This document shows positions 9,569 to 61,893 of a DNA stretch of 62,105 bases, piece by piece. The stretch is from assembly GCA_964520615.1 (NCBI GenBank), contig CAZFNL010000120.1, forward strand, positions 1 to 62,105. The letters are read 5' to 3'. Source of the DNA: an uncultured Gammaproteobacteria bacterium. Its GTDB lineage: Bacteria; Patescibacteriota; Microgenomatia; 2-02-FULL-39-11. The notes beneath the pieces were generated by a model, which worked only from the letters and a program-made list of their open reading frames with translations, searched no databases and was not told where the DNA came from. The translations under genes were made by a program, and so were the position numbers. Position 1 is the stretch's first letter; each line of letters starts with the position of its first letter.

Positions 9569-10774
9569 TTATCTGTATTTTAAGTACTCTACACTTCTAT
9601 ACCTTGTAAATCCCAAAAGTAATAAGCTTGAAACTGCTGCAATTGCACTGGCAAAGAAAAAGGGCATTGAGGGATTAAATTTATCCCAAAGGAATCCAGC
9701 GATAAGACTGGCAGGTAAAGTCGCTGCTCCAATAACCGCGTTATATATTCCATATGCTTTACCACGATGCTCGGGTGAAGTCATGTCAGCTACAAAGGCT
9801 TTTGCTACACCCTCTGTAGTAGCATAGTAAACTCCGTAAAAGGCAAAAAGAAACCATATCTGATAACTTTTATCTGCTAGTGCAAAACCTAAATAAGCAA
9901 GGGCATAAGCCAACCATCCCAAAAAAATTACCTTTTCCCTGCCGATTTTATCAGACAGACTACCCAAAGGTATTGATGCGGTGGCATAGAAAAAATTGAA
10001 AAGAGCATAAACCAATGGAATTCCTAAAAGCGTCACGCCAACATTCTGAGCACGCAGTATAAGAAAAGTATCTGAAGAATTTCCCAAAGAAAATAAGACC
10101 ACGATAAAAAGAAAAATATAAAAGTCTTGAGAAAGATTGTGAGGCCTATCGTCATGTTTAATTTCTGCAGACAGATGTTTTTCCTTAACAAAAAAAACAA
10201 GTATAAGAAGGGTTATAAAAAGGGGAACTGCTGAAAAGAAAAATATATAATGATATTTCAATTGATTGCTACTCAAAAGATAAAGCATGACAAAAAGTAA
10301 TATCGGCCCTATTACAGAACCGAATGTATCAAGAGCCCTCACTATTCCAAAACCCTTGCCTCTTGTTTCAACTTTTGCAGACTCGGCGATAAGAGCGTCT
10401 TTTGGAGTATCTTTCATCCCTTTCCCAACTCCATCAATAAAACGCAGTCCCAATACACCAATACCGGATGTCAATATAGAAAGAAGTGGCCTACTAATCA
10501 ATGAAAGGAAATACCCTGTAAAGACAAGAGATTTCTTTACTCTGAATTTATCCGTCAGGTAACCAGCGACTATTTTGAATATACTGGCACTACTTGTAAC
10601 TAAACCTTCAATAAGTCCTATAAATTCTTTATTAAAATGGAGAATATTTGCAAGGTAAAGAGGAAGAATCGGTAGGAAAATATCCTGGCTTATACCGCCG
10701 AAAAAGCTTAACATTCCTATAAAAAAGACGTTATTATCTATTCTTTTAGAAGTCTTCCTATATTCCTGTGCCAT
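9569..10774 (-). CDS. MFS transporter
   Basis: About 12 hydrophobic segments; GYLTDKF, RFIDGVGKG, GSLSDKIGR. Confidence 0.92.
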   Translation of the reverse strand: MAQEYRKTSKRIDNNVFFIGMLSFFGGISQDIFLPILPLYLANILHFNKEFIGLIEGLVTSSASIFKIVAGYLTDKFRVKKSLVFTGYFLSLISRPLLSILTSGIGVLGLRFIDGVGKGMKDTPKDALIAESAKVETRGKGFGIVRALDTFGSVIGPILLFVMLYLLSSNQLKYHYIFFFSAVPLFITLLILVFFVKEKHLSAEIKHDDRPHNLSQDFYIFLFIVVLFSLGNSSDTFLILRAQNVGVTLLGIPLVYALFNFFYATASIPLGSLSDKIGREKVIFLGWLAYALAYLGFALADKSYQIWFLFAFYGVYYATTEGVAKAFVADMTSPEHRGKAYGIYNAVIGAATLPASLIAGFLWDKFNPSMPFFFASAIAAVSSLLLLGFTRYRSVEYLKYR

Positions 10775-10892
10775 ATTGTTTCCAAACCTTAAAAACTTAT
10801 TACTTTTGAAATCATATCATTGTCAAAGTAAAAAATGTATACCATTAAAATTCCCTATTGAAAAGGAAAAAATGATATATAATAATTGAGCT

Positions 10893-11330
10893 ATGGCCAA
10901 ACAAACAAAGCCGGATAAAAGCGGTAGAATTTCGGCCGTATATTTCGTAAGCTATATACTCATTGGAATTATCATATCTTTTATATATAGTGTAATAGTA
11001 GTCTACCTCCTTAATCCGTCAGTATATAGATTAATTCCACTCCTTGGAAGAGCTGACCAAGTAATTTTCCCCCTAGTCATTGTCCTTCTTGATACCTTTA
11101 TTGCGTCAAAAATGATAAAAAGCAAATACGAAATAGAAAAACCTGACAGGGTAGCATTATTATCAACTATATATGTTCTTGTCTTCAGCCTTATTTTTAT
11201 GCTGCCGATGTTAACGCAGAAAATTAGCGGTATCCCCAATACCAGGAACCTATTGCCTACTCTTATATCCTCAGCCTTGGAAATTCTGCTTTTTTATTTC
11301 TTCAGCTCCTTATTCTTAAGAAAGAAATAG
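10893..11330 (+). CDS. Hypothetical membrane protein
   Basis: 145-aa ORF with about 4 TM segments. Confidence 0.6.
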   Translation: MAKQTKPDKSGRISAVYFVSYILIGIIISFIYSVIVVYLLNPSVYRLIPLLGRADQVIFPLVIVLLDTFIASKMIKSKYEIEKPDRVALLSTIYVLVFSLIFMLPMLTQKISGIPNTRNLLPTLISSALEILLFYFFSSLFLRKK

Positions 11331-17576: not shown

Positions 17577-17618
17577 ATATTTCAGGTAGAATTGAACCTT
17601 TGAACTCAGATAAAAAGA

Positions 17619-17669
17619 TTACTCATGTCTCAAAGCTTCAATCGGGGATAAATCAGCGGCTTTCCCGGC
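17619..17669 (-). pseudogene. Recoded duplicate of the ABC permease C-terminus (AGKAADLSPIEALRHE*)
   Basis: Aligns to 17695-17745 (ARKAADLSPIEALRYE*), offset 76. Confidence 0.88.
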
Positions 17670-17694
17670 ACGTATTCCCGTAATATTTCTCCTG

Positions 17695-18918
17695 TTATTC
17701 ATATCGTAACGCTTCTATCGGAGATAAATCTGCCGCCTTACGTGCTGGATAAAGTCCGAATACTATTCCTATACCCGCCGATACACCTATTGCCAAAATT
17801 ATAGCCGATAGGGATAGGGTAAACGGCAGGCTTATAAAATGAGAAATTACAAATGACAACCCCGCACCCAAAAACATCCCTATTACGCCTCCGACAAAGG
17901 TTAGAATAATAGACTCAGCAAGAAATTGGGAAATAACCGTCCTCTTCTTGGCTCCTAGGGCTTTTCTCAAACCTATTTCCCTTGTCCTTTCTGTTACTGT
18001 CACAAGCATGATATTCATAATTCCGATTCCCCCGACAAGAAGAGATATGGCGGCAATTCCGGAAAGAAGCGCGCTGAAAGTACCTGTCACCTGGGATGCA
18101 GCTCCCAATATGTCAGCCTGGGAAAATATGCTGAAATCTGCCTGTGCGGGATCTTTTATCTTATGTCTGGTCAGAAGAAAATAGCCTACTTGGTTTTCCG
18201 CCTGTGTCATAACGTCCGTACTCTTGGCGGAAACGGAAATATTACTCACATAATCCACTCCGTATAACTGATGTTGTGCGGTGGTAAGAGGAACATAAAC
18301 AATATCATCCTGATTGGCAAATCCCGATCCGCCCTTGGAGACTGTTACGCCAACCACTCTGAAAGCCTGCTTGTTTATTCTTATGGACTGTCCGACCGGA
18401 TCTGCTCCGTCACCGAAAAGATCACTTACTACCTGCGGACCCAAAACGGCTACTTTCTCCTCACTGTCTACATTATTCTGGCTTATAAATGCGCCTGAAG
18501 ACATTGTAATGTTGCGTACGGCAGCATATGCCGGAGTAACCCCGGCTATCTGTGTATTCGTATTGTTTCTGCCCGCTGTTACCTGTCCTCTCCTTGTCAG
18601 TTCAGCCGACACGTTACTTACCGTTGTCACATCAGGTGATGATAAAATAGCTTTTGCGTCATCATAAGTAAGTGAAGTGTCCCCTCCGGCTGCCCCCCTG
18701 ACCCCGCCGGTTGTTGAAGCACCCGGTATAACAGTCAGAAGATTGGATCCCAAAGATTCAATCTGCGACTGCACCGCTTTTTGTCCGGCCTGGCCCAAGG
18801 AAATGAGCGCAATAACGGCCCCGATACCAATTACAATACCGAGAGTTGCCAGGGCTGTACGCATTTTATTCAAAGTCAGAGCATTTATACTTTCGGCGAG
18901 AAGTTCTCCAAAATCCAT
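17695..18918 (-). CDS. MacB/FtsX-like ABC permease
   Basis: GIVIGIGAV, GGIGIMNIMLVTVTERTREIGLRKALGA, PIEALRYE. Confidence 0.93.
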   Translation of the reverse strand: MDFGELLAESINALTLNKMRTALATLGIVIGIGAVIALISLGQAGQKAVQSQIESLGSNLLTVIPGASTTGGVRGAAGGDTSLTYDDAKAILSSPDVTTVSNVSAELTRRGQVTAGRNNTNTQIAGVTPAYAAVRNITMSSGAFISQNNVDSEEKVAVLGPQVVSDLFGDGADPVGQSIRINKQAFRVVGVTVSKGGSGFANQDDIVYVPLTTAQHQLYGVDYVSNISVSAKSTDVMTQAENQVGYFLLTRHKIKDPAQADFSIFSQADILGAASQVTGTFSALLSGIAAISLLVGGIGIMNIMLVTVTERTREIGLRKALGAKKRTVISQFLAESIILTFVGGVIGMFLGAGLSFVISHFISLPFTLSLSAIILAIGVSAGIGIVFGLYPARKAADLSPIEALRYE

Positions 18919-27483: not shown

Positions 27484-28347
27484 ATGAAATCAGGTTATGT
27501 AGCGATTGTCGGCCGACCAAACAGCGGCAAATCAACGTTGCTGAATAACATTTTGGGTCATAAGGTCTCCATCACCTCACCAAAACCTCAAACTACAAGA
27601 TTTCCCATTCAGGCTGTCTATGAAGACGATAGAGGACAAATAATCTTCATCGACACTCCGGGAGTCTTTGGGAAAGTTCATGACCCGTTGTCTAAATCCA
27701 TTAATCCCATGGCCCAAGAGACATTGTCACAAGGACCGGACGTGGTAGTATATCTAGCTGATCACACTAGAGACCGCGATATGGAAGAAAATAAATCGTT
27801 GGGTTTGGTACGGAATATCAATACTCCTAAAATTTTGGCAATAAATAAGATTGATATTAAAAAACCTACATACCTACCCCACTATAAATTCATGGAAGAA
27901 GAATTTGACAAAACTGTAATGATATCCGGGCTTTACAAGAATAACTTGAATTACCTGCTTGATGCAATTTTTGAACTTTTACCTGAAGGAAAAAAAATAG
28001 TAAATGCTACCGATAGACCGACTCCAGCTCTTAATATAGACAGTAAAATATACATTGCAGAAATTGTGAGAGAAAAAGCCTTTCTTTTTTTACGCAAGGA
28101 AGTGCCCTATTCTCTGACGTGCCTCGTGGATGAGATAACTCACCGTAATAACAATATGGTATATATAAAGGCACGAATTATTACTTCAGCAGACAGGTAT
28201 AAAAAAATGATTATTGGAGAAAACGGCCGGATGGTTAAGGAAATCGGTATGGCTGCAAGAAAAGAGTTGGAAACAGCCACTAACCAGAAAGTTTATATCA
28301 ATATTCAGGTAGAAACAAACCCTCACTGGATTGACCAATTAACTTAA
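27484..28347 (+). CDS. era: GTPase Era
   Basis: GRPNSGKS, PQTTR, DTPG, NKID, KH-like IIGENG. Confidence 0.96.
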   Translation: MKSGYVAIVGRPNSGKSTLLNNILGHKVSITSPKPQTTRFPIQAVYEDDRGQIIFIDTPGVFGKVHDPLSKSINPMAQETLSQGPDVVVYLADHTRDRDMEENKSLGLVRNINTPKILAINKIDIKKPTYLPHYKFMEEEFDKTVMISGLYKNNLNYLLDAIFELLPEGKKIVNATDRPTPALNIDSKIYIAEIVREKAFLFLRKEVPYSLTCLVDEITHRNNNMVYIKARIITSADRYKKMIIGENGRMVKEIGMAARKELETATNQKVYINIQVETNPHWIDQLT

Positions 28348-28371
28348 ACTCAATAGTTTATACCTGTACTT
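28339..28371 (-). pseudogene. Recoded duplicate of the rdgB C-terminus (KYRYKLLSLS*)
   Basis: Aligns to 28414-28446 (KCRNKLLSLY*), offset 75. Confidence 0.6.
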
Positions 28372-28413
28372 CCCAATTAGTACGTTCATGGAAATTTGAC
28401 TTGCCGGTTAAAG

Positions 28414-29004
28414 TCAGTATAAACTCAAAAGCTTGTTCCGACATTTCAATAGCGCGCGGGCTCTGTGACTAACGTTGTTTTTTTCCGCTGGTGACGCTTC
28501 AGCATTAATTTTTTCTAAATCAAAATTATAGAAAATCGGATCGTACCCGAAACCATTTTTACCGCTTGGCTTTTGTGTAATACATCCTTCACTTTCCCCT
28601 CGGAATGTAAAAACCTTGTCTTCTTGAGGATTATAAAGAGCAACAACGGCTATAAATCTGGCTGTTCTTTTCTTTTTCGGGATACCTGACATTTCCTTTA
28701 ATACCTTTTTAACCCTATCTTCATCAGTTCCCATCGTATATCTAGCAGAATAAATTCCCGGTTTTCCACCAAGGGCATCCACCTCCAAACCAGAATCATC
28801 TGCCAAAGTCATTAGTCCCGTCTTTCTCCCGATTGTTCTGGCCTTAAGTACGGCATTTTCCTCAAATGTTTTACCTGTTTCTTTCACATCAGTATCATCT
28901 CCGAAATCCGAAAGAGACAAAATATCAAAAGGAAGGCCGGAGAATATTTCTTTTATTTCCCGCATTTTACCGGGATTTTTGGAGGCAATCAGAATCTTAG
29001 ACAT
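28414..29004 (-). CDS. rdgB: Non-canonical purine NTP pyrophosphatase
   Basis: SKNPGK, ETGKTFEENA, DDSGL, GFGYDPIF, SHRARA. Confidence 0.95.
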   Translation of the reverse strand: MSKILIASKNPGKMREIKEIFSGLPFDILSLSDFGDDTDVKETGKTFEENAVLKARTIGRKTGLMTLADDSGLEVDALGGKPGIYSARYTMGTDEDRVKKVLKEMSGIPKKKRTARFIAVVALYNPQEDKVFTFRGESEGCITQKPSGKNGFGYDPIFYNFDLEKINAEASPAEKNNVSHRARALLKCRNKLLSLY

Positions 29005-37804: not shown

Positions 37805-38120
37805 ACCCAAAAAAAATCCCACCTTTTTCTAAGGGTGAGACTATCACGGTACCACCTTATTTTGGTTATGAGTGATGTTTAGCGGGTGATGGGTTTTTAA
37901 TGATCATATTTCGTAACCCACAACTCACAACTTATCCCGCCTCAGCGGGATCCATAATGCTTTAAGACTCAATAATTTTTCAACAGCATCGGGACATACC
38001 CACAACTACTTATTCCAGCTATCACGGGCATACCCGGCAAGGATCTAATTTCCGACTATGTGGATTTCTTCCTGCAGCTTGTTAGAAAAATCTAACTATG
38101 GCGTGTCGTCGCCATTGTAG
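37805..38120 (-). ncRNA. T-box riboswitch (tRNA specificity not resolved)
   Basis: Antiterminator AAGG-UGGUACC-GUGA...UCAC-CCUU at 37831-37858 overlapping a terminator with U-tract (37809-37840); GCCCGUGAUA stem II-like motif at 38020-38029; 5' boundary uncertain. Confidence 0.8.
37934..37951. repeat. REP-like palindrome inside the T-box leader
   Basis: ATCCCGC-ctca-GCGGGAT. Confidence 0.65.
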
Positions 38121-39967: not shown

Positions 39968-41344
39968 ATGAAGATTGCACTTCCGAAAGAGGTAAATACT
40001 ACACTATTGATACTCAAAAAAGCAGGATTTCAGGCATATGCCGTAGGCGGTTGTGTAAGAGACATTATCCTTTCAAAACCCACAAAAGACTGGGATTTCA
40101 CCACTGACGCTACTCCGGAAGAAATTATAAAACTGTTTCCTGACAGTTTCTATGATAATAAATTTGGCACTGTCGGCGTTGAGATAAAAACATCAAATGG
40201 CAAGAAATTAGATTCACCTGATATATATGAAATAACTACATTTAGAAGTGAAATGGGTTATTCTGACCATCGTCATCCTGACAAAATCATCTGGGGTAAA
40301 ACTCTTGAGGAAGATCTGGAAAGAAGAGATTTTACTATAAACGCGATGGCCACAAACGGGAAAAAGATTATTGATCTTTATGACGGACAGAAAGACATCT
40401 CACAAAAACTCATCAAAGCTGTAGGAGATGCAAATCTACGCTTCAAAGAAGACGCGCTACGCATGATGCGGGCTATCCGCATCGCTACAGAACTCCAATT
40501 TCTTATTGAAGAAAAAACATTTATGGCTATTAAAAAGAACGCATCGCTACTTGCCAAAATCTCAACCGAAAGAGTAAGAGATGAGTTACTAAAAGTTCTT
40601 GCTTCCAACTTCCCAGCAGACGGTATAATGCTTTTGAAAAATGCAGGTCTTCTGTCTTTTATATTGCCTGAACTAGAAAAATGTTTTGGTGTGGAACAAA
40701 AAAGCCCCAAACGCCACCACGTTTTTGATGTGGGTACACATCTTCTTATGTCACTGAAAAACTGCCCGTCCTCAAATCCTATCGTCAGACTGGCAACACT
40801 CCTACATGATATCGGCAAACCTGCTACTTTTAACAAAACTTTTGAAGGAGTAATCACTTTTTATAACCACGAGATCATCGGCGCTTCAATAGTCAGAAAT
40901 ATCGCCCAACGTCTACATTTGTCAAAAAAAGATTCGAATTTGCTTTTGACTCTTGTCCGTTATCATCAGTTTACTGTAGATGAGAGACAAACCGATACTG
41001 CAGTCAGGCGCTTTATAAGAAATGTCACGCCTGAATACTTGAATCATATGCTTCATCTTCGTACCGGCGACAGACTTGGAGGCGGCGCTAGGGAAACTTC
41101 GTGGAGACTTGAGCTATTCAAAAAAAGGTTACTAGAGGTACAAACACAGCCTTTTACCGCGGCTGATCTGAAAATAGACGGCTACGACGTAATGAAAATT
41201 TTTGCTTCACGGCCAGGCCCATTGGTAGGAAAAGCGCTGGACATGCTCTTTAACGACGTTGTTGAAGGGAAACTGCCAAACGAAAGAGAAATTCTTCTCA
41301 CAAGACTGAAAGAACTAAAAAATAAAAAAATACTGTCTAATTAA
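39968..41344 (+). CDS. cca: CCA-adding enzyme/poly(A) polymerase family with HD domain
   Basis: VGGCVRD, DWDF, RRDFTINA, EDALR, LLHDIGK. Confidence 0.88.
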   Translation: MKIALPKEVNTTLLILKKAGFQAYAVGGCVRDIILSKPTKDWDFTTDATPEEIIKLFPDSFYDNKFGTVGVEIKTSNGKKLDSPDIYEITTFRSEMGYSDHRHPDKIIWGKTLEEDLERRDFTINAMATNGKKIIDLYDGQKDISQKLIKAVGDANLRFKEDALRMMRAIRIATELQFLIEEKTFMAIKKNASLLAKISTERVRDELLKVLASNFPADGIMLLKNAGLLSFILPELEKCFGVEQKSPKRHHVFDVGTHLLMSLKNCPSSNPIVRLATLLHDIGKPATFNKTFEGVITFYNHEIIGASIVRNIAQRLHLSKKDSNLLLTLVRYHQFTVDERQTDTAVRRFIRNVTPEYLNHMLHLRTGDRLGGGARETSWRLELFKKRLLEVQTQPFTAADLKIDGYDVMKIFASRPGPLVGKALDMLFNDVVEGKLPNEREILLTRLKELKNKKILSN

Positions 41345-41345
41345 T

Positions 41346-42269
41346 TTATTTTTTCCTATTTTGTCCCCATTCCTCCCATAACACAAGAAGAGGAGAAGCG
41401 TTGAAAATGGAGGAATAAGTTCCTGAGGCAATTCCAATAAGAAGCGCTACTATAAACCATCTTATTGTTTCTCCCCCGAAAAGAAGGAGGGCAAAAAGAG
41501 TAAAAAGTACAGTCAGTGATGTGGAGAGAGATCTTGCTAATGTCTGAACTATCGACTCATTAGTAACATCGGCAAAAGAAAGATTAGGCATTTTATGCAG
41601 GTTTTCCCTAATTCTGTCAAAAACCACGATAGTATCGTGTACCGAAAATCCCATTACGGTTAAAAGCGCGGTAATAAAAAGACTATCCACCTCCACGTTG
41701 AAAAAATGACCCATTATGGAAAAAATTCCAACAACCACCAACACGTCATGAACTAAAGCAATAACAGCGCAAATACCGAATTTCCATGAAGAGTATGGTT
41801 TGTGAATTTTTCTGAAAGCAAAGGCGATAAAAATAATTATTGCAAGCGAAGCAATAAGAACTGATTTAACCGCATTCAAAGTAGTCTCAGCACCAATTGT
41901 TGGCCCGACTGTCTGCAAGCTCAAGACGGAAATTTGTCCAAGTTTTATATTCATATCAGACTCTAATTTTTGTGTCTGATTTTTATCTATTGGCTTCATT
42001 CTTAAAAGATAAGTCTTTGTATTTGTTACCTGTACTGAAGCAAGTTCAATCTTGTCTGATTTGGCAACTTCCTCAATGTCTTTTATCAATATTGGATCGT
42101 TTGTGTTTTTTGGCGGGTTTTCAACCCGTACTTCCATCGTTGTCCCTCCGGTAAAATCTATAGCCGGTCTTATACCCCACAATGCCAAAGAGATTATTCC
42201 TGGAACGATAACCAATCCGGAAAGGATGAAATACAATATTTTTTTGCCTATTATGTCTGGCGATTTCAT
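41346..42269 (-). CDS. secF: Protein translocase subunit SecF
   Basis: IDFTGG, VGPTIG, GFSVHDTIVVFDRIRE. Confidence 0.96.
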   Translation of the reverse strand: MKSPDIIGKKILYFILSGLVIVPGIISLALWGIRPAIDFTGGTTMEVRVENPPKNTNDPILIKDIEEVAKSDKIELASVQVTNTKTYLLRMKPIDKNQTQKLESDMNIKLGQISVLSLQTVGPTIGAETTLNAVKSVLIASLAIIIFIAFAFRKIHKPYSSWKFGICAVIALVHDVLVVVGIFSIMGHFFNVEVDSLFITALLTVMGFSVHDTIVVFDRIRENLHKMPNLSFADVTNESIVQTLARSLSTSLTVLFTLFALLLFGGETIRWFIVALLIGIASGTYSSIFNASPLLVLWEEWGQNRKK

Positions 42270-42294: not shown

Positions 42295-43632
42295 TTAAGA
42301 ATGTCGGTAAAGCATTCTCAAAAAAGTCCTAGTCACTGTAATTGCGGAAAATAAGGATACAATTATTCCTATTGCCAATGTGATAGCAAAACCCCTTATT
42401 ATTCCCGTACCAAACCAGTAAAGTATACCGCAAGTGATTAGTGATGAAATGTTGGAATCGCGAATCGAAGGGAAAGCTCTGTCAAAACCGAGTCTTATGG
42501 CGGTCATATGATCTTTACCCCACCTTAATTCTTCTTTCATCCTCTCAAATATAAGTATATTGGCATCCACAGCCATTCCTATAGACAGTATAAAACCGGC
42601 AATTCCAGCTAGCGTTAACGTCACCGGAATAAGCTTAAAGATGGCAAAAACAATAAGAGAATAGATAATCAATGCAATATCAGCCAAAAGACCCAATATA
42701 CCATAATTGAAAAGCATAAAAAGGGCAACCAATGTCAATCCGACCGCACCAGCTATCATGCTTTTTTCGATTGATTGAAATCCCAAAGTAGCGCCTATAT
42801 TCCTTTCCTCAATTACTTTGAGAGGAACGGGTAACGCTCCAGCATTCAAATCTATTGACAGCCTTTTTGCTTCATCCATGGTAAAAGATCCCTGTATTAC
42901 AGCATTTCCTCCCGATATAGGCTCGTTTACACGTGGAGCTGTTATTAACTGATTATCCAAAAATATAGCGATAGTCTTGCCCACATTTTCTTTTGTAATC
43001 TTTTCAAAAAGGTCAGCCCCGGCAGAGTTGAATACTAACGATACCTCAGGTTTACCGGTATTTGGATCGAAAGTGACCGATGAGCTTTTTAGGTCTTTGC
43101 CGGTCAATCCTGTCGGCTTGGTCCATATGTCTGCAATAGTAGACGATGTAGTGGCAGTCTTAGCAGACTGGGTCCCTTCGGCGTAAAATGTCAGCTGTGC
43201 AGTCTTTCCAATGAGATCAATTGCGCTTGACACATCCGACACCCCAGGTATTTCCACAATTAATCTGTATGATTGACCCACTTTTGACTGTTGGATTACC
43301 GGTTCCGTAAGACCGTAAAGATTTATTCTTCTTTCTACTACATCCTTTGCAGCGTTGAAGGCATTATCTTTGTCTGCAGAAGCGATCTTACTCATATCCG
43401 CCTCAAGCGTAAGATGAGTACCACCTGACAAATCAAGACCATAGTGTCCTGCCAAATTTTTCGTGACTGATATCGGACCAAGTTGAAAATTGATATCCGG
43501 ACCATGTATTGTCCTATTGATTTTTATCGGACCTGAAGAAAACTTCAATCTATAACTTCTCGGCAAGTCAATAACTACCGATACAACAGTCAAAAAAGCA
43601 ATAAACCACAGAAGTAATCTTATATGTTTCAT
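42295..43632 (-). CDS. secD: Protein translocase subunit SecD
   Basis: GLDLSGG, IGMAVDANILIFERMKEE. Confidence 0.96.
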   Translation of the reverse strand: MKHIRLLLWFIAFLTVVSVVIDLPRSYRLKFSSGPIKINRTIHGPDINFQLGPISVTKNLAGHYGLDLSGGTHLTLEADMSKIASADKDNAFNAAKDVVERRINLYGLTEPVIQQSKVGQSYRLIVEIPGVSDVSSAIDLIGKTAQLTFYAEGTQSAKTATTSSTIADIWTKPTGLTGKDLKSSSVTFDPNTGKPEVSLVFNSAGADLFEKITKENVGKTIAIFLDNQLITAPRVNEPISGGNAVIQGSFTMDEAKRLSIDLNAGALPVPLKVIEERNIGATLGFQSIEKSMIAGAVGLTLVALFMLFNYGILGLLADIALIIYSLIVFAIFKLIPVTLTLAGIAGFILSIGMAVDANILIFERMKEELRWGKDHMTAIRLGFDRAFPSIRDSNISSLITCGILYWFGTGIIRGFAITLAIGIIVSLFSAITVTRTFLRMLYRHS

Positions 43633-45745: not shown

Positions 45746-45949
45746 AAAATAAAATACAAAATAATTACAATCCTACATTTTTCCGGCGATTACGTCAACT
45801 AATTAATCCTATTATTAGAGATATATCTCCCAAGCGTGCTGATTCTGAACAAACATCTGAATGGAATAATCTCTTCTAGTACTCCATTTCGCTGATTTTC
45901 AATCGTTTCTCAAAGCCGGTCCGGATAGCAAAATTAACTAAACGAACTA

Positions 45950-54871: not shown

Positions 54872-56749
54872 TCAGGATTTCTTCGCACTATTTTTAGATT
54901 GTTCTTTCAACTGATAGGCTAGCTCATTATAACCTTTTTCAAATGCTTCTATCGACGCCACAATAATATCAGGGGATGTGCCTTTCTCAATTACTTGAGT
55001 TCCATTCTCATGTTGTAAGACCATACTTGCTTCTACAGTAGCATCGCTTCCTGTTGTAGGTATCTCTACGTTAAAATCGGTAAGGCGGAATTCCCCTCCA
55101 TTTTTGCGTTTGATAATTGAGGATATTGCGTTTATTGCTGCGTCTACCGGTCCCACTCCTTCGCTTTCATTTTCAAATTCGCGACCGTTAAGGCTAATTT
55201 TGACATATGCCCTGGGTTTATTTCTTTTGGAAGTCTCGATTCTAAAATCCAAAACGTCCAGTGTCTTTTTTCTTCTCTCATCCTGCATGATAGTCTCTAT
55301 TATTGACTGAAGATCAGCTTTCACGATATTTTTCCCTTTTACGATAATAAACTTACCAATCACTTTTTTGATTATTTTTAGCGATTCTATATCCAATTCC
55401 AGTCGGAATTCACGCTTGATGACTTTTTTCAACTCGATCTCTTCGGGTACTTTGGTAAATAAGACTTTTTCTTTATCGCCTACTCCTCCTGCTCTAAGAG
55501 ACAGAATGCCGCTTTTTATCACTTTTAAGGCTTCAGAAAGTATCGGTTCGATTGTTGGTGGATCAGCCAAAACTTTTAGCGTTGTGGCAGGATCTTTCAA
55601 ACCTGCCCCAGTTGCCACACAAACCACTACATCATTTTCTTTTATAATCTTCTGTTTCGCCAGTCTTTGAAGCGCTACAATCGAAGTAGCTGATGAAGGC
55701 TCTATATATAGCGCTTCCATCTTAGCAAGAGTCTGCTGAGCGGAAAGCGTCTCATCATCTGATACTGCTATGGCTGTCCCGTGTGACTCTTTCAGAGCTT
55801 TGAGCACTTTGGGGTAATCAATTGGCATCCCGCAGGCAATAGCAGAACATATAGTTTGGGGTTTATCCAATGGCTTTATCTCAGAGTGAGTTATAAAAGC
55901 TGTTACTATTGTTGACGCTCCCTCAGCCTGAACAGCCACCATTTTCGGGAGCTGGGAAATAAGGCCAAACTCAAAATATTCCTTAAATCCTTTCCAAATA
56001 TAAGATAAGTTTGTTCCCATTCCCACCGGCACTATTACCCAGTCAATTTTACCAAACCACATCTGCTCGCAAACTTCAAATGCCAGTGATTTCTGGCCTT
56101 CACCTCTAAAAGCATAATCTCCGGCCAGGTAATAACCGAACTGCGCCGCAACTTTTACTGTAAGGTTAAAAGCATCAGAGTAAGTACCGCGCACCTGGAT
56201 TACCCGCGCTCCATAAGAAATGGCCTGAGCCAACTTGCCGCGCGGCGTATTTTCAGGCACAAATACATAACACTCCAAACCTGCCTGAGCAGAATATGCA
56301 GCAACGGATGCTGCCATATTTCCGGTTGAAGCAACACAGACGCTCTTAAAACCTAATTCTTTTGCCTTATTTATTTCTACAAAACTTCCCCTATCCTTAA
56401 AAGCCCCTGTGGGATTGAGACCTTCATTTTTCAGGTAAATTCTGGAAAGTCCTAACTTACTGCCAAGTTTTGGCAAATTATGGAGCTGTGTTCCCCCCTC
56501 ACCAAGCGAGCTTAAATTATTCCTATCAATTAAAGGGTAAAAATCAAGATATTTTATTGTTTTGGGAGGGGTATTTTGCATCACATAGAAATTCATTCCA
56601 TCTTTTAGCTTTGAATAATCATAGATTACGTCAAGAGGGCCGCCACAACTTCTGCAGACGGTAGTATTTTCTTTTTCGTTAACCTTTTTATGACAAAGGA
56701 AACATTCTATATGATAGAAATAGTCATCTGATATCATTTTTTCTTCCAA
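54872..56749 (-). CDS. thrC: Threonine synthase-like PLP enzyme fused to a LeuA-type C-terminal regulatory domain
   Basis: NPTGAFKDRG, ASTGN, EGQKS, EPSSA, TGAGLK; C-term GVGPVDAA...GSDATVEA...DIIVAS. Confidence 0.82.
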   Translation of the reverse strand: MEEKMISDDYFYHIECFLCHKKVNEKENTTVCRSCGGPLDVIYDYSKLKDGMNFYVMQNTPPKTIKYLDFYPLIDRNNLSSLGEGGTQLHNLPKLGSKLGLSRIYLKNEGLNPTGAFKDRGSFVEINKAKELGFKSVCVASTGNMAASVAAYSAQAGLECYVFVPENTPRGKLAQAISYGARVIQVRGTYSDAFNLTVKVAAQFGYYLAGDYAFRGEGQKSLAFEVCEQMWFGKIDWVIVPVGMGTNLSYIWKGFKEYFEFGLISQLPKMVAVQAEGASTIVTAFITHSEIKPLDKPQTICSAIACGMPIDYPKVLKALKESHGTAIAVSDDETLSAQQTLAKMEALYIEPSSATSIVALQRLAKQKIIKENDVVVCVATGAGLKDPATTLKVLADPPTIEPILSEALKVIKSGILSLRAGGVGDKEKVLFTKVPEEIELKKVIKREFRLELDIESLKIIKKVIGKFIIVKGKNIVKADLQSIIETIMQDERRKKTLDVLDFRIETSKRNKPRAYVKISLNGREFENESEGVGPVDAAINAISSIIKRKNGGEFRLTDFNVEIPTTGSDATVEASMVLQHENGTQVIEKGTSPDIIVASIEAFEKGYNELAYQLKEQSKNSAKKS

Positions 56750-57789
56750 TTTTCAGGACGCAGAGACCTTACAGTAGCGCCTGCCCTCCACATCTCCATA
56801 TTTCTCATTTCTGACAATTCTTTTTCAAGTTTTTTCCTATAATCCTTTGCTGAATTTGCCTTCAATACTCGTTGTGCTTCTTTTCCGATCTTGACAGAAG
56901 AATAGAGCCTCCTGAAAACCGGAGCTACAGCGTCTCTAAACTCTCCTTTCCAATCAAGAGCACCTCTTTGAGCGGTAGTTGAACAGTTGGCATACATCCA
57001 GTCCATTCCGTTTTCCGCAACCATCCTGATAAGACTTTGGGTCAACTCTTCCACTGTTTCGTTAAAAGCTTCAGATGGCGTGTGTCCTCGTCTTCTGAAT
57101 TCATTAAACTGCGCCTCCATTATCCCTTCAAGCGCTCCCATAAGTACTCCCCGCTCCCCTGTCAAGTCGCTGTAGACTTCTTTCTCAAACGTGGTTTCAA
57201 AAAGAAAACCTGATCCCACACCGATACCCATTGCCATAACTCTCTCCTTTGCCCGGCCTGTAGCATCTTGGAAGACGGCAAAACTACTATTTATCCCGCT
57301 TCCGGCAAGGAAATTCTGCCTTACAGATCTTCCAGCACCTTTAGGAGCTATAAGGATAACGTCTGTATCTTTTGGAGGAATAATCTTGGTATATTTCCTG
57401 TAAGTGATACCAAATCCGTGGGAAAAATAGAGTGCTTTACCGGCAGTCAGATATTTTTTCACTTTTGGCCACAGAGCCACCTGCCCGGCATCAGAAAGCA
57501 GATAGGCCAATATCGTACCTTTTTCTGCCGCTTCCTCAATAGAAAAGAGGGTCTTTCCTTTTTTCCACCCATCCTTTACAGCCTTATCCCAGGAAGATGA
57601 AGGTGACCGTTGACCGATAATCACATTCACACCGTTATCTTGCAGATTCATCGCTTGTGCCGGACCCTGAACTCCATAACCAAGTACCGCAACTATTTCA
57701 TTTTTTAATACCTGGCGGGCGCGATCTAGCGGAAACTCCTGCCTCGTCACTACATTTTCGGTAACATCACCAAATTTCATCTTTGCCAT
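56734..57789 (-). CDS. ilvC: Ketol-acid reductoisomerase
   Basis: GYGVQG, SDLTGERGVLMG, AQRGALDW; start MAKM at 57789. Confidence 0.94.
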   Translation of the reverse strand: MAKMKFGDVTENVVTRQEFPLDRARQVLKNEIVAVLGYGVQGPAQAMNLQDNGVNVIIGQRSPSSSWDKAVKDGWKKGKTLFSIEEAAEKGTILAYLLSDAGQVALWPKVKKYLTAGKALYFSHGFGITYRKYTKIIPPKDTDVILIAPKGAGRSVRQNFLAGSGINSSFAVFQDATGRAKERVMAMGIGVGSGFLFETTFEKEVYSDLTGERGVLMGALEGIMEAQFNEFRRRGHTPSEAFNETVEELTQSLIRMVAENGMDWMYANCSTTAQRGALDWKGEFRDAVAPVFRRLYSSVKIGKEAQRVLKANSAKDYRKKLEKELSEMRNMEMWRAGATVRSLRPENWKKK

Positions 57790-57799
57790 AGAAAACTCC

Positions 57800-58288
57800 T
57801 TATTTATATAATGCGGTTCTTCCGGTCCGCACAAACTCAATAATGCCGAATTTCTTCATATTTTCATAAAAGGCATCAATTTTCTCCTCTTCACCGGTAA
57901 TCTCTAGCACCATATATTCTGGATGAATATTTACTACATGAGCTCTAAAATGATCGGCAATGTTGGATACTTCAATTCTAGCTCCTGGCTTTCTTATGGA
58001 AACCTTTAGAAGCGCAAGTTCTCTGGCAACAATTTCTCCTGGTGCTGGATCGCTTACTTTTAAAACTTCAATAATCCGGTAAAGTTGTTTGCTCATTTTC
58101 TCAACAATGTCTTTTTCTCCCCGCACCAATATCGTAAATCGCGAAATCAGGGGATTTTCTGTATGTGATACCGTCAGACTCTCGATATTAAACCGCCTTT
58201 TGCGGATAAGGCCTGCAATCCGGAAAAGGACTCCCGGTCGGTTTTGTACAGACACGATTAAAGTTGACAAATTATTCTTAGTCTCCAT
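57800..58288 (-). CDS. ilvN: Acetolactate synthase small subunit
   Basis: NRPGVL, FNIESL, VRTGRTAL. Confidence 0.93.
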   Translation of the reverse strand: METKNNLSTLIVSVQNRPGVLFRIAGLIRKRRFNIESLTVSHTENPLISRFTILVRGEKDIVEKMSKQLYRIIEVLKVSDPAPGEIVARELALLKVSIRKPGARIEVSNIADHFRAHVVNIHPEYMVLEITGEEEKIDAFYENMKKFGIIEFVRTGRTALYK

Positions 58289-58296
58289 AAATCTTA

Positions 58297-58317
58297 TTTA
58301 CGCTTTACGCTAAACGC
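58297..58317. repeat. Heptamer tandem array (TTTACGC)2-TAAACGC
   Basis: Seen directly. Confidence 0.75.
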
Positions 58318-58322
58318 TAATT

Positions 58323-58358
58323 TTACTCCAGTATAATTTCATCCACGGCCGCACCAGC
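58323..58358 (-). pseudogene. Recoded duplicate of the ilvB C-terminus (AGAAVDEIILE*)
   Basis: Aligns to 58399-58434, offset 76; 17-bp identity block. Confidence 0.9.
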
Positions 58359-58398
58359 ACCACTTTTATAACATATCCTACTAAAACTATGATTATTG

Positions 58399-60105
58399 CT
58401 ATTCTAATATTATCTCGTCCACGGCCGCACCAGCCGGCATCATTGGGAATACATTGGCCTCTGTCTCCACAACAAATTCAATAACAAACGGTCCTTTATG
58501 CGCACGTGCTTTTTTTATTGCAGGTAATATATCCTTTCTGTTTTCTACTTTCACAGCCGGTATCCGGAACCCCTCGCAGAGTTTGATAAAATCGGGATTC
58601 CTCAAAAATACCTCCGAATATTTATGATTGAAAAAAAGATGCTGCCATTGCCGTACCATACCCAAAAAATTATTATTCAGAATTGCTACTTTAATATCTA
58701 TATTTTCCTCTTCAATGGTTGCTAGCTGATTCATGGTCATCTGGAAACTTCCATCCCCAACAATTGCCCAGACTTCGGCCCCAGATCTGCCCAATTTTGC
58801 GCCCATAGCAGCCGGAATGGAAAAACCCATAGTACCTAAACCTCCGGAAGTAAGAAATCTGTCAAGTTTATGAAAATGGTAATATCTGGCGGCTATCATC
58901 TGATGTTGACCCACATCGGCTACAACAACTGCCTCACCCCTCGTCTCCTGATTCAGCTCATTAACCACCTCACCCATTTTGATTTTTCCTTTTTTGGGAT
59001 GGACTTCAACTTGAATAACCTTTTTATCTTCAATCCGGTCATATTTTTTAAATTCCGCAAACCATTCTTTATGCTTTACACGATTGACTAGAGGAATAAG
59101 TTTACCAAGAACATTTTTCACGTCGCCGACAATAGGCACATCTGCTTTTACATTTTTCCCCAGCTCGGCAGGATCAATATCCACATGAACTACTTTCGCG
59201 CCTTTGGCATAAGAAGATAAATTTCCAGTCACTCTGTCATCAAAACGCATACCCAAAGCAATCAGGCAATCAGTTTTATTAGTACACATATTCGGACTAA
59301 GATTCCCGTGCATCCCCAACATTCCTACATAACTTGGATGGTCAACAGTGATACTACTGATTCCATGAAGGGTGGTAGCTACAGGAATATCAGCCTTTCG
59401 TGCAAGCTCATCCAGCTCTTTTTCAGCATGGGAAATGAGGATTCCGTGACCAGCCAAAATATAAGGCTTTTTGCTTTCATTTATAATTTCTGCCGCTTTT
59501 TTAATTTGTATAATATTTCCCTCAACAGTCGGCTTGTATCCGGGAAGATCTAGACTTTTGGGGTAAACAAATTTGCACTCTCTATATTGCGCATCTTTGG
59601 CAATATCAATCATGACTGGACCGGGTCTCCCTGAATTGGCAATATAAAAAGCTTCTCTTATTACATCCGCCACTTCCTCCGGTTTTAGGATAAGATAATT
59701 ATGTTTGGTAATCATTCCCGTCACTCCTACCACATCAGTCTCCTGAAAAGCATCGTTGCCAATGAGATTTGAAACCACCTGGCCGCTAATGCAAACAATC
59801 GGGACTGAATCCATCATGGCATCGGCAATTCCGGTTATCAGATTTGTGGCACCAGGTCCTGAGGTAACGAGGCAAACTCCCGGTTTACCGGTAACTCTAG
59901 CATAGCCTTCAGCAGCGTGAGCCGCACCCTGTTCGTGACGTACCATCACATGATGAAGCTCCGGATATTCCAAAAGCGCATCATAGGTTGGCATGATAGC
60001 ACCCCCTATATAACCAAAAATTGTATCGACTCCCTCACGAAGCAACATTTCACAAAGAATTTCTCCACCGGTTGCGTTCTGTCCTTCTTTTAATCTAGTT
60101 TTCAT
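58399..60105 (-). CDS. ilvB: Acetolactate synthase large subunit
   Basis: RHEQGA, TSGPGATN, FQETD, GDGSFQM..NN, PM. Confidence 0.96.
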   Translation of the reverse strand: MKTRLKEGQNATGGEILCEMLLREGVDTIFGYIGGAIMPTYDALLEYPELHHVMVRHEQGAAHAAEGYARVTGKPGVCLVTSGPGATNLITGIADAMMDSVPIVCISGQVVSNLIGNDAFQETDVVGVTGMITKHNYLILKPEEVADVIREAFYIANSGRPGPVMIDIAKDAQYRECKFVYPKSLDLPGYKPTVEGNIIQIKKAAEIINESKKPYILAGHGILISHAEKELDELARKADIPVATTLHGISSITVDHPSYVGMLGMHGNLSPNMCTNKTDCLIALGMRFDDRVTGNLSSYAKGAKVVHVDIDPAELGKNVKADVPIVGDVKNVLGKLIPLVNRVKHKEWFAEFKKYDRIEDKKVIQVEVHPKKGKIKMGEVVNELNQETRGEAVVVADVGQHQMIAARYYHFHKLDRFLTSGGLGTMGFSIPAAMGAKLGRSGAEVWAIVGDGSFQMTMNQLATIEEENIDIKVAILNNNFLGMVRQWQHLFFNHKYSEVFLRNPDFIKLCEGFRIPAVKVENRKDILPAIKKARAHKGPFVIEFVVETEANVFPMMPAGAAVDEIILE

Positions 60106-60174: not shown

Positions 60175-61893
60175 CTAACTTGTAACTGCGCCGTATGAAG
60201 CGCTTGATACCAGTTTTGCGTATTTTGCCAGAACTCCCCGTTTATATTTATCTGCCGGAGCTTTCCAATTCTTCCTTCTTTTCTCAATCTCATCTTTACT
60301 TATATCCAAATCTACGATCCTTTTTTTCAGGTTGATAGTTATCATATCTCCTTCTTTCACTAAAGCAATTGTCCCTCCGACTTTTGCCTCGGGTGATACA
60401 TGTCCTATCATAATTCCGTGAGTACCGCCTGAGAAACGTCCGTCTGTAATAAGGGCAACATCTTTCCCCAATCCCCGACCCATTAGAGCTGAAGAAGGAG
60501 AAAGCATCTCCCGCATGCCTGGTCCGCCTTTTGGACCCTCATATCTTATCACTATTACGTCTCCTTTTTTTATCTTCCCGGCGAGAATTGCATCAAGAGC
60601 ATCCTCTTCCCTCTCAAAAACTCTGGCAGGACCCCGATGCATCTCCATCTCCTTGCCGGAAAGTTTCATCACTGCACCCTCTTTTGCCATATTGCCATAC
60701 ATGACAACAATATGATGGTCAGACGGCGCCAAAGGTTTATCAAAACTATATACAATCTTCTGGTTTGAGGGTCGCCTCCGGGCTGACCTGATATTTTCCT
60801 CTACCGTTTTTCCTGTTACTGTCATACATTCACCATGAATAAGCCCTGCTTCATAAAGCATTTTCAAAACCATTTGTACTCCGCCTATGGTATGCAAATT
60901 CTCCATAACATAATCACCAAAAGGTTTGAAATTACCCAAAAGTGGTACTTTCTTTCCGATTCTATCAAAATCAGAAAGAGTCAAATCAATATCAGCCTCA
61001 TGGGCCAAAGCTAAAAGATGAATATAAGCATTGGTAGATCCTCCAAGAGCCAACACAACCATAATCGCATTTTCAAAAGCCTTTTTTGTCATGATATCCC
61101 TTGTTCTTATGCCTTTTTTCATCAGGTTAAAAAGAGCTTTGACTGAATTTTTGCAGTCTGCTTTTTTCTCCGCTGATACCCGGTTTTTGCGGTCTACGGC
61201 CAAATTGGTAGCAGAACCTGGCAAACTCATTCCCAGTGCCTCAATGGCACTTGACATGGTATTGGCGGTAAACATCCCCCCGCAGGCACCGGCTCCCGGA
61301 CATGAATGGCACTCAATCTGCCGGAATTCGGCATCGTTCATCTTACCCGCAGCGTGAGCTCCGATTGCTTCAAAAGTGCTGACTATTGTCAGGTCTTTTC
61401 CTTTATACCTTCCCGGCAAAATACTTCCTCCATAGAGAGTCAACCCTATGCTGTTGTTTCTGGCCAGCGGCATAAGCGCTCCCGGTATAGTCTTGTCGCA
61501 GCCTGAAAGGGTAATAATACCGTCAGCCATATATGATTCATGCATTGTCTCGATGCTGTCGGCGATAAGCTCGCGGGAAACAAGGGAATACTTCATGCCT
61601 TCCATGCCCATTGATTCTCCATCACTTACTACAGGAGTTCCGAATATGAACGCTTTCCCTCCGGCTTTTTCTATCTCATCTTTTATAATCTCTCCCAACT
61701 CCTGGACTTGAGCATTGCAGGGAGTAGCATTGGTGTATGGACAAGCTACAGTCACGATGGGTTTTTCAAAATCTCGGTCATTGAAATTGACTGCCCGCAG
61801 CATGGCACGTGCCGCGGCTCTTTTTGCCCAATCCTTGCCGCCGGGGGTTCCGGTAAGAAACCTGCTTCGATTTTTTAATAAATTTTTACTCAT
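60175..61893 (-). CDS. ilvD: Dihydroxy-acid dehydratase
   Basis: [41 protein letters not shown]. Confidence 0.96.

Follow-up and report, generated by a model that had tools for sequence, protein, structure and literature searches.

The ilv operon described here raises a simple question: why does the end of an acetolactate synthase gene stand twice, once as the working end of the gene and once more in the spacer behind it? The operon lies in a stretch of 62,105 nucleotides (nt), hereafter the window, which is one entire contig (CAZFNL010000120.1, C120) of the metagenome-assembled genome (MAG) GCA_964520615.1. This genome under study, G000 (1.67 Mb, 138 contigs, 94% complete, 4.3% contamination), was compared with a sister species of the same genus (G001) and with a member of the next genus (G016). 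The gene ilvB, encoding the large subunit of acetolactate synthase (568 amino acids; TIGR00118, 738 bits), is an open reading frame (ORF) that occupies positions 58399 to 60105 of the minus strand and ends in AGAAVDEIILE and a stop. Its last 11 codons with the TAG form the inner copy, R1 (58399-58434), which is the working gene end. A unique 40-nt spacer S follows (caataatcatagttttagtaggatatgttataaaagtggt, 58359-58398), and behind it an outer copy, R2 (58323-58358), which we call the shadow, repeats the 11 codons and closes with TAA, all on the minus strand.

Read on the minus strand, the gene copy (58434-58399) is gct ggt gcg gcc gtg gac gag ata ata tta gaa tag, and the shadow (58358-58323) is gct ggt gcg gcc gtg gat gaa att ata ctg gag taa. 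The direct-repeat search placed the shadow downstream of the gene end with a start-to-start offset of 76 nt. The copies agree at 29 of 36 nt and at 11 of 11 residues, and their first 17 nt are identical. The 7 nucleotide differences fall in 6 codons and are all synonymous, six of them at third positions and one at a first position (tta/ctg); the stop is retained, as TAG in the gene and TAA in the shadow. A match of 29/36 at any offset between 30 and 300 within the window has a chance expectation of about 0.009. The changed codons are unevenly placed: the first 5 codons are all unchanged, whereas 6 of the last 7 are altered (Fisher p = 0.015). With a neutral shadow that took every change, the probability that all would be synonymous by chance is 3.6e-5; if it took half of them, the probability is 0.034. 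The shadow is confirmed as a real, second copy of the last 11 codons, and the preliminary description, which had reported the duplicate with these same residues, silent differences, identical head and offset, was reproduced in each of these points.

Synonymous differences resemble strain variants, and in a MAG of 138 contigs with 4.3% contamination an assembly or strain-mixture artefact could be suspected. However, contigs assembled independently with k = 31 (Logan) from three samples of one mine-drainage study span positions 57900 to 58900 with 0 differences and no joints at a depth of 17-43x, crossing the locus without any break or alternative path. The read support whose absence would have spoken against the preliminary description is therefore present in all three samples, at the level of independently assembled contigs. 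Furthermore, the block common to both copies has only 17 nt, which is below k, and orthologous shadows are present in a second MAG, so that an artefact is barely credible. Elsewhere in the window, apparent joints at 42438 (skipping 85 nt) and 48747 (skipping 73 nt) have short sides and lie within conserved coding sequence, and we attribute them to foreign contigs.

Regarding a possible coding role, the shadow lies in the +1 frame with respect to ilvB (76 = 3 x 25 + 1), it has no usable start, and no in-frame ATG, GTG or TTG was found ahead of its internal GTG. Reading by readthrough, by frameshift or as an independent ORF was rejected, since there is no consistent frame or start. The spacer contains no terminator, no promoter and no Rfam family, and its fold is not unusual (z = +0.94). 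An ilv leader peptide, an attenuator or another cis-acting RNA was rejected as well, because an in-frame start, a terminator, an Rfam match and a conserved fold are all missing. In the metatranscriptomes of the same mine-drainage study the locus is absent. Judged from its sequence, the shadow is non-coding by all tests applied, and taken singly it amounts to a harmless scar that keeps ilvB and ilvN apart.

The origin of the spacer S was sought in the same genome, where neither a second copy nor a donor was found. The similarity of S to T, the 34 nt left between the shadow and ilvN (58289-58322, minus strand), and to X, the sequence ahead of R1, is not significant (p = 0.65 and 0.80), and on this test and on alignment by eye we rejected S as a decayed neighbouring flank or a decayed ilvN start. 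The spacer T carries a small reiteration of the tagcgt type (tagcgt ttagcgt aaagcgt aaa) and has a 33-nt match of 85% on another contig of the genome (C111:22991-23023). The small subunit gene ilvN (57800-58288, minus strand, 162 amino acids; NF008864, 179 bits) is now 110 nt away from ilvB. In relatives whose IlvB is 74-76% identical, ilvN begins 1-12 nt past the ilvB stop and the shadow is absent. Both copies in the genome under study carry an isoleucine (EIILE) at the position where every sampled type-A relative has an arginine (EIRLE-type), and this common residue indicates a duplication within this lineage. A search for related loci among genome contigs returned only relatives of about 50%.

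The preliminary description had also taken the shadow for a possible crossover or breakpoint in the operon. In favour of a junction with a foreign ilvB, or ilvN-ilvC, recombined into the operon, the 17-nt identical block is followed by a tail saturated with synonymous changes, and this abrupt switch does look like a boundary of recombination or gene conversion. Moreover, an exchange of ilvB and ilvN is known within the genus. The contigs of the two species are collinear at 77-94% nucleotide identity along the window, except between 57893 and 60176, where identity with G001 (C9:39563-41877) drops to 66-70%; this stretch comprises the whole of ilvB and the first ~400 nt (~130 codons) of ilvN. 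Amino acid identities between the two species are 94% for IlvD, 56% for IlvB, 54% for IlvN and 97% for IlvC, whereas between G000 and G016 they are 78, 74, 81 and 80%, respectively. Two ilvBN types are present in the family, and these comparisons show that a xenologous exchange of the ilvB-ilvN cassette has happened in the genus. The likely recipient is G001, because the four Ilv proteins of G000 are uniformly distant from the next genus, as expected for vertical descent. Nevertheless, the ends of the exchange lie elsewhere, in the ilvD/ilvB spacer (~60176) and inside ilvN (~57892), and the shadow lies within the swapped segment. The uniform 74-81% identity to G016, the isoleucine in both copies and the recurrence of the structure at ~40 unrelated genes speak against an import as well. 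The recombination-like boundary and the exchange in the genus thus stand, but the reading as a foreign-gene junction appears largely refuted by these identities, and we regard it as very improbable.

The recurrence just mentioned is what gives the locus its wider meaning, since the ilvB shadow belongs to a genus-specific class of terminus duplications of ~75 nt with fast gain and loss. Genome-wide, a search for ORF ends repeated downstream gave 8 exact cases with offsets of 73-103 nt, and an unbiased nucleotide scan of direct repeats with offsets of 30-400 gave a sharp peak at 70-79 nt. The self-comparison at the amino acid level (offsets 30-300) returned 86 matches, 41 of which lie at 70-80 nt (mode 75-76) over a background of 0.16 per offset. 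About 40 loci repeat gene-terminal codons in the adjoining spacer with a period of 70-80 nt, and a duplicated terminus with the ~75-nt period is carried by ~2-3% of the genes in this 1.7-Mb genome. The loci detected at the nucleotide level sit on gene boundaries, with the exceptions of C130 (intragenic) and C99 (intergenic). At least 16 are of the 3'-type, in which the stop is included, and at least 8 of the 5'-type, in which the start is included; C68, C72 and C137:154905 are additional 5'-type loci. The repeated part has 27-53 nt (8-72 nt if diverged cases are counted) and the spacer 8-50 nt, while their sum is constant. The spacers are unique and unrelated among themselves, and in the codon alignments inspected the similarity halts at the stop codon, or starts at or just before the start codon. 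We have not found this pattern described in the literature.

Many copy pairs are 97-100% identical and others are heavily recoded. Summed over the 16 loci of the 3'-type, 136 codons are identical, 63 differ synonymously and 15 non-synonymously, the differences are distributed over the three codon positions as 14:11:70, and the stop is retained in 13 of the 16 shadows. An accelerated evolution of gene ends was not seen between G000 and G001, as the last 30 nt have a third-position identity of 0.86 and the remainder one of 0.81. The extreme recoded loci cannot be explained by neutral decay. The window itself contains two further members on the minus strand: the end of a MacB-like permease gene with its shadow at a period of 76 (17616-17748; KAADLSPIEALRYE versus KAADLSPIEALRHE, each followed by a stop, with 9 synonymous and 1 non-synonymous codon differences) and the end of an rdgB-like gene with a shadow at a period of 75, which is present in both species (28336-28440). 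In the pyrophosphatase gene hppA (C17), the end and the shadow share 52 of 72 nt (72%) and 23-24 of 24 residues, with 17 synonymous and 1 non-synonymous codon differences. This shadow occurs in both species, but its period is 80 nt in one and 78 nt in the other and the frame is therefore not conserved; between the species it differs at 2 of 72 nt, versus ~11% in the spacer beyond. Both hppA copies end in the genus-specific GFIH and a stop; they are 72% identical to each other at the nucleotide level and 68-79% identical to the gene ends of other genera. In the protein collection the next pyrophosphatase is at 85%, and no closer carrier of either codon version was found. At C65, the two copies agree in residue at 14 of the 16 codons that follow the start, and at 11 of these 14 the codons themselves differ (synonymous to non-synonymous 11:2).

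Both gain and loss are visible when the two species are compared. They differ at 19% of third codon positions, and among the 49 medium indels in 305 kb of alignment 24 amount to a net gain or loss of 69-83 nt, with cases in both directions. Realignment left 20 indels with a clean gap of 69-85 nt. Terminus duplications account for about half of them and the remainder are MITE-like elements, that is, they resemble miniature inverted-repeat transposable elements (MITEs). In G001 we counted 10 terminus-duplication loci per 355 kb, and in five other genera of the family (~800 kb) at most 2. The different ilvB of G001 has a duplication of its own (L012 3150-3355; C9:~41250-41450), in which the last 53 nt and an 18-nt spacer stand in 2.8 perfect copies with a 71-nt period. 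The perfect, complete 72-nt tandem duplicate at G001 C9:343953 is specific to that species, has a junction microhomology of at most 1-2 nt and is a newborn example of the class. An array of 2.5 copies of 75 nt was also noticed at G001 C9:3528-3714, where G000 has a single copy (C63:~1230).

Which copy corresponds to the relatives' version could be determined at several 5'-type loci. At C137:154905, C137:55166 and C72:8137, all strongly recoded and found only in G000, the single working terminus of G001 is the outer (shadow) version, and the inner, now functional copy with its spacer is a novel stretch of ~75 nt that brings a Shine-Dalgarno sequence and a start codon of its own. At C137:154905 the new N-terminus is MSKKGNRIALITG, similar to the one in other genera (MSKKNKKIALITG), and the shadow is identical to the sister species' version. 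The insert at C137:55166 is a circular permutation of the gene start. At ridA the polarity of presence is reversed, as the insert is in G001, and the outer copy has lost the ATG and part of the Shine-Dalgarno sequence; altogether the start codon is lost in 4 of 8 shadows of the 5'-type. At C63:18588 and its orthologue G001:20509 both copies bear the same species-specific substitutions, a pattern that in sequence terms is concerted evolution.

Taking these observations together, we give a probability of roughly 55% to the reading that the ilvB shadow is an untranslated relic of a duplication or insertion of ~76 bp across the stop, whose outer copy stays allele-like by recombination with relatives lacking the insert. 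A process particular to this Gottesmanbacteria-like genus would add units of 70-80 nt. Such units would arise anywhere, but those inside genes would be purged by selection, and the survivors would straddle a start or a stop and so leave a shadow terminus. At ilvB the unit would straddle the stop, so that IlvB still terminates at the inner R1, R2 is displaced into the spacer, and ilvN, which adjoins ilvB in relatives, is shifted ~76 nt away. The outer copy, contiguous with the normal flank, could then be overwritten by the working gene end of insert-lacking relatives, up to a crossover in the identical head. The inner tail and the spacer would have no partner in such relatives and would diverge alone under selection at the protein level. 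The synonymous-only pattern would thus reflect the different recombinational setting of each copy. This topology agrees with the way in which the mosaic is oriented at ilvB, C11 and C72, with the three loci at which the relative's allele is the shadow and with recombination in the genus; the ilvBN swap, together with segments of 77-94% identity across the window, documents recombination with diverged relatives.

Several results weigh against the relic reading. The fixed length of ~75 nt has no explanation in it. In 13 of 14 loci no relationship could be detected between the spacer S and the flank expected from a plain tandem duplication, so the birth of the units was perhaps not a plain duplication. 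The synonymous excess of 63 versus 15 codons is inflated, as the amino-acid-level scan favours conserved shadows. For ilvB itself, the closest IlvB in the protein collection is at 76%, and neither codon version was found in a closer relative. Finally, the old hppA shadow fits gene flow and direct selection on the shadow equally well.

If the unit was instead already foreign at birth, the ilvB tail and its 40-nt spacer would have been copied, already recoded, from the locus of a diverged relative. Both would have been attached beside the native end either through a homologous junction on one side and an illegitimate one on the other, or through break repair with a short tract of templated synthesis. 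This would account for spacers that are unique and look intergenic, and that in 5'-type loci bring their own Shine-Dalgarno sequence and start, for several heavily recoded inserts found in one species only despite just ~19% third-position difference, and for the other-genus N-terminus at C137:154905. In addition, one report (PMC3240628) describes such a route as homology-facilitated illegitimate recombination, with one in-register and one illegitimate junction, which can add foreign sequence beside a homologue. The genus-only residues in both copies of ilvB and of hppA, however, would demand an unsampled close lineage as donor, the circularly permuted insert at C137:55166 is not obtainable from a linear foreign fragment, and neither the constant 75 nt nor the complete perfect 72-nt tandem copy is accounted for; we regard the foreign patch as unlikely. 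We consider it quite unlikely that the shadows are functional and directly selected, be it as micro-ORFs, as recombination-proof spare termini for genes whose TAG/CTAG ends are targets of MITEs, or as cis-acting elements. The coding-like divergence of a subset is extreme (synonymous to non-synonymous 17:1 in hppA, 11:2 in C65, 9:1 in the MacB-like gene and 6:0 in ilvB), stops are mostly preserved (13/16), conservation between species is seen for the shadows of hppA and rdgB and for the C63 spacer, and the shadow ORFs of C90 and of the MacB-like gene begin on an overlap of the GTGA/ATGA type with the real stop. Nevertheless, the period takes all values modulo 3 and differs between species at hppA, the ilvB shadow has no start, in-frame starts elsewhere occur at about chance frequency and that of rdgB is not conserved, half of the 5'-type shadows (4/8) have no start codon, the ilvB spacer has no RNA structure, Rfam family or terminator, and the turnover between the two species is high.

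A broader alternative, which we hold as rather doubtful, is that an undescribed process in this genus of the Candidate Phyla Radiation writes units of ~75 nt with recoded terminal codons at gene boundaries, or that the shadows are kept by selection. If so, it would be a new kind of small-scale genome remodelling that renews gene termini and uncouples neighbouring genes, and its driver might be an IS5-type transposase acting on pseudo-ends one MITE-length apart, or a repair enzyme with a ruler of ~7 helical turns. Under the relic reading too, candidates for setting the length are a repair or fill-in reaction, or an IS5-type transposase whose MITEs of 74-81 nt match in size, and these same-sized MITEs in the same genomes are the only lead on the ~75-nt ruler.

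The MITE-like elements form two families with CTAG ends and 8-15 copies each. F1 (74 nt, at least 15 copies) begins with CTAGTACTCC and ends with AACGAACTA, followed by CTA or CTG. Its copies include window positions 45876-45949, C88:23193, C17:20547, C9:6210, C51:12125, C129:7871 and 7945, C85:25023 and 25098, and C18:8041/6509/16947; the copy in the window coincides exactly with a TAG stop codon, and the sister species lacks it. In G000 an F1 element also lies inside a shadow copy (C17:20424-20620; ...TTA ACC AG, the element, C AAG TTT TAG), and the inner copy 73 nt upstream is intact; here the shadow took an insertion by which the gene end would otherwise have been changed. F2 (81 nt; CTAGAAGCTATCTCAAAA...ATATCGAGATGAGTTCTAG) is often head to tail with F1 at a common CTAG and was found at C63:9499-9579, C45:10512, C117:8686, C90:32594, C85:24940, C51:12198 and G001 C9:139217. 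The genome has 11 matches to DDE_Tnp_1 (IS4/IS5-type) transposases, and most relatives have 0-4. These elements are similar to the shadows in that they measure 74-81 nt, occur in the same genus at gene ends (targets CTAG/TAG) and are polymorphic between the two species. However, they are multi-copy with inverted ends and CTAG flanks, whereas the ilvB unit occurs only once and lacks ends of this kind; a MITE or transposon insertion at ilvB was rejected accordingly, S being single-copy. The window contains a further 77-nt insert absent from G001 (37921-37997), with the hairpin atcccgc-ctca-gcgggat and partial copies on C88, C90 and C81, which is probably another small element family.

The class can also be compared with known ways of duplicating short sequences. 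Tandem duplication by slippage or unequal exchange would give direct adjoining copies, as observed, and some loci do have 2.5-2.8 units and one a perfect 72-nt duplicate. In contrast to slippage, the length is sharply peaked at 70-80 nt and does not decay, the newborn junction has almost no microhomology (at most 1-2 nt), and at most loci similarity within the unit persists in its coding part only. Plain tandem duplication was rejected on the whole unit, which is repeated only at G001 C9:343953, and not at ilvB or at 12 of 13 other loci. Homology-facilitated illegitimate recombination differs in that no fixed insert length is expected there, and the copies here carry lineage-specific residues. 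Flap-type duplications by loss of a 5' nuclease (rad27/polA-like) were rejected, as PF02739 is present in G000, in G001 and in 16 of 19 other genomes of the family.

Non-canonical spacer integration (neo-CRISPR) gives a repeat-spacer-repeat geometry with a period of ~70 nt. In our loci, by contrast, the repeat length varies between 8 and 72 nt with a constant sum and there is no Cas1; off-target integration of the CRISPR type (Cas1-Cas2) was rejected, since PF01867 is absent in G000 and G001 and the repeat length is inconstant. In diversity-generating retroelements a pair of variable and template repeats (VR/TR) places a second copy of the 3' end of a gene downstream. This was rejected too, as no match to PF00078 (RVT_1) was found in G000 or G001; furthermore, the differences between the ilvB copies (c/t, g/a, a/t, t/c, a/g, a/g and g/a) are not adenine-specific, unlike those of VR/TR pairs.

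The closest geometry is that of integrative elements such as e14 or phage 21 in icd and Rac at the 5' end of ttcA, where the incoming DNA supplies the terminal codons and the native terminus remains as a nearby pseudo-copy with mainly silent or conservative changes, as in the shadows. The insertion of e14 in icd leaves a 163-bp pseudo-icd' (PMC6379469). The geometry fits; at three 5'-type loci the outer copy is the relatives' version, and for ilvB itself no close relative was found. Here, however, only 40 nt of unique sequence lie between the ilvB copies, no integrase-bearing mobile element and no cargo were found there, and ~40 genes are affected at both 5' and 3' ends with a period of ~75 nt. 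The class combines a fixed period, rapid turnover and a subset of untranslated copies that differ almost exclusively at silent sites, which is not predicted by slippage, transposition or known integrases. If the gene-flow explanation is true, the loci naturally mark which sites homologous recombination reaches in uncultivated Patescibacteria and which it does not; should that explanation be false, a new duplication mechanism or a role for spare gene ends remains to be found. In annotation, the shadows imitate gene fragments and lengthen spacers.

Regarding the rest of the operon, the gene order on the minus strand is ilvD, ilvB, ilvN, ilvC, a fusion gene, ridA and ilvE. The gene ilvD (dihydroxy-acid dehydratase, 60175-61893) was assigned by profile match, and ilvC (ketol-acid reductoisomerase, 56734-57789) by its ORF and a profile match, with the start set at the ATG of MAKMKFGD. 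In the fusion gene (54872-56749), which stands between ilvC and ridA at the expected place of ilvA, a threonine-synthase-like enzyme is joined to a LeuA-type C-terminal domain. Elsewhere in the genome, the end of contig C24 (11573-11595) overlaps the start of C114 (49-71), and the two probably join at a terminus duplication. Contig C114 also holds a long array with a 36-nt period (10621-11250), which is a kind of repeat other than the ~75-nt class.

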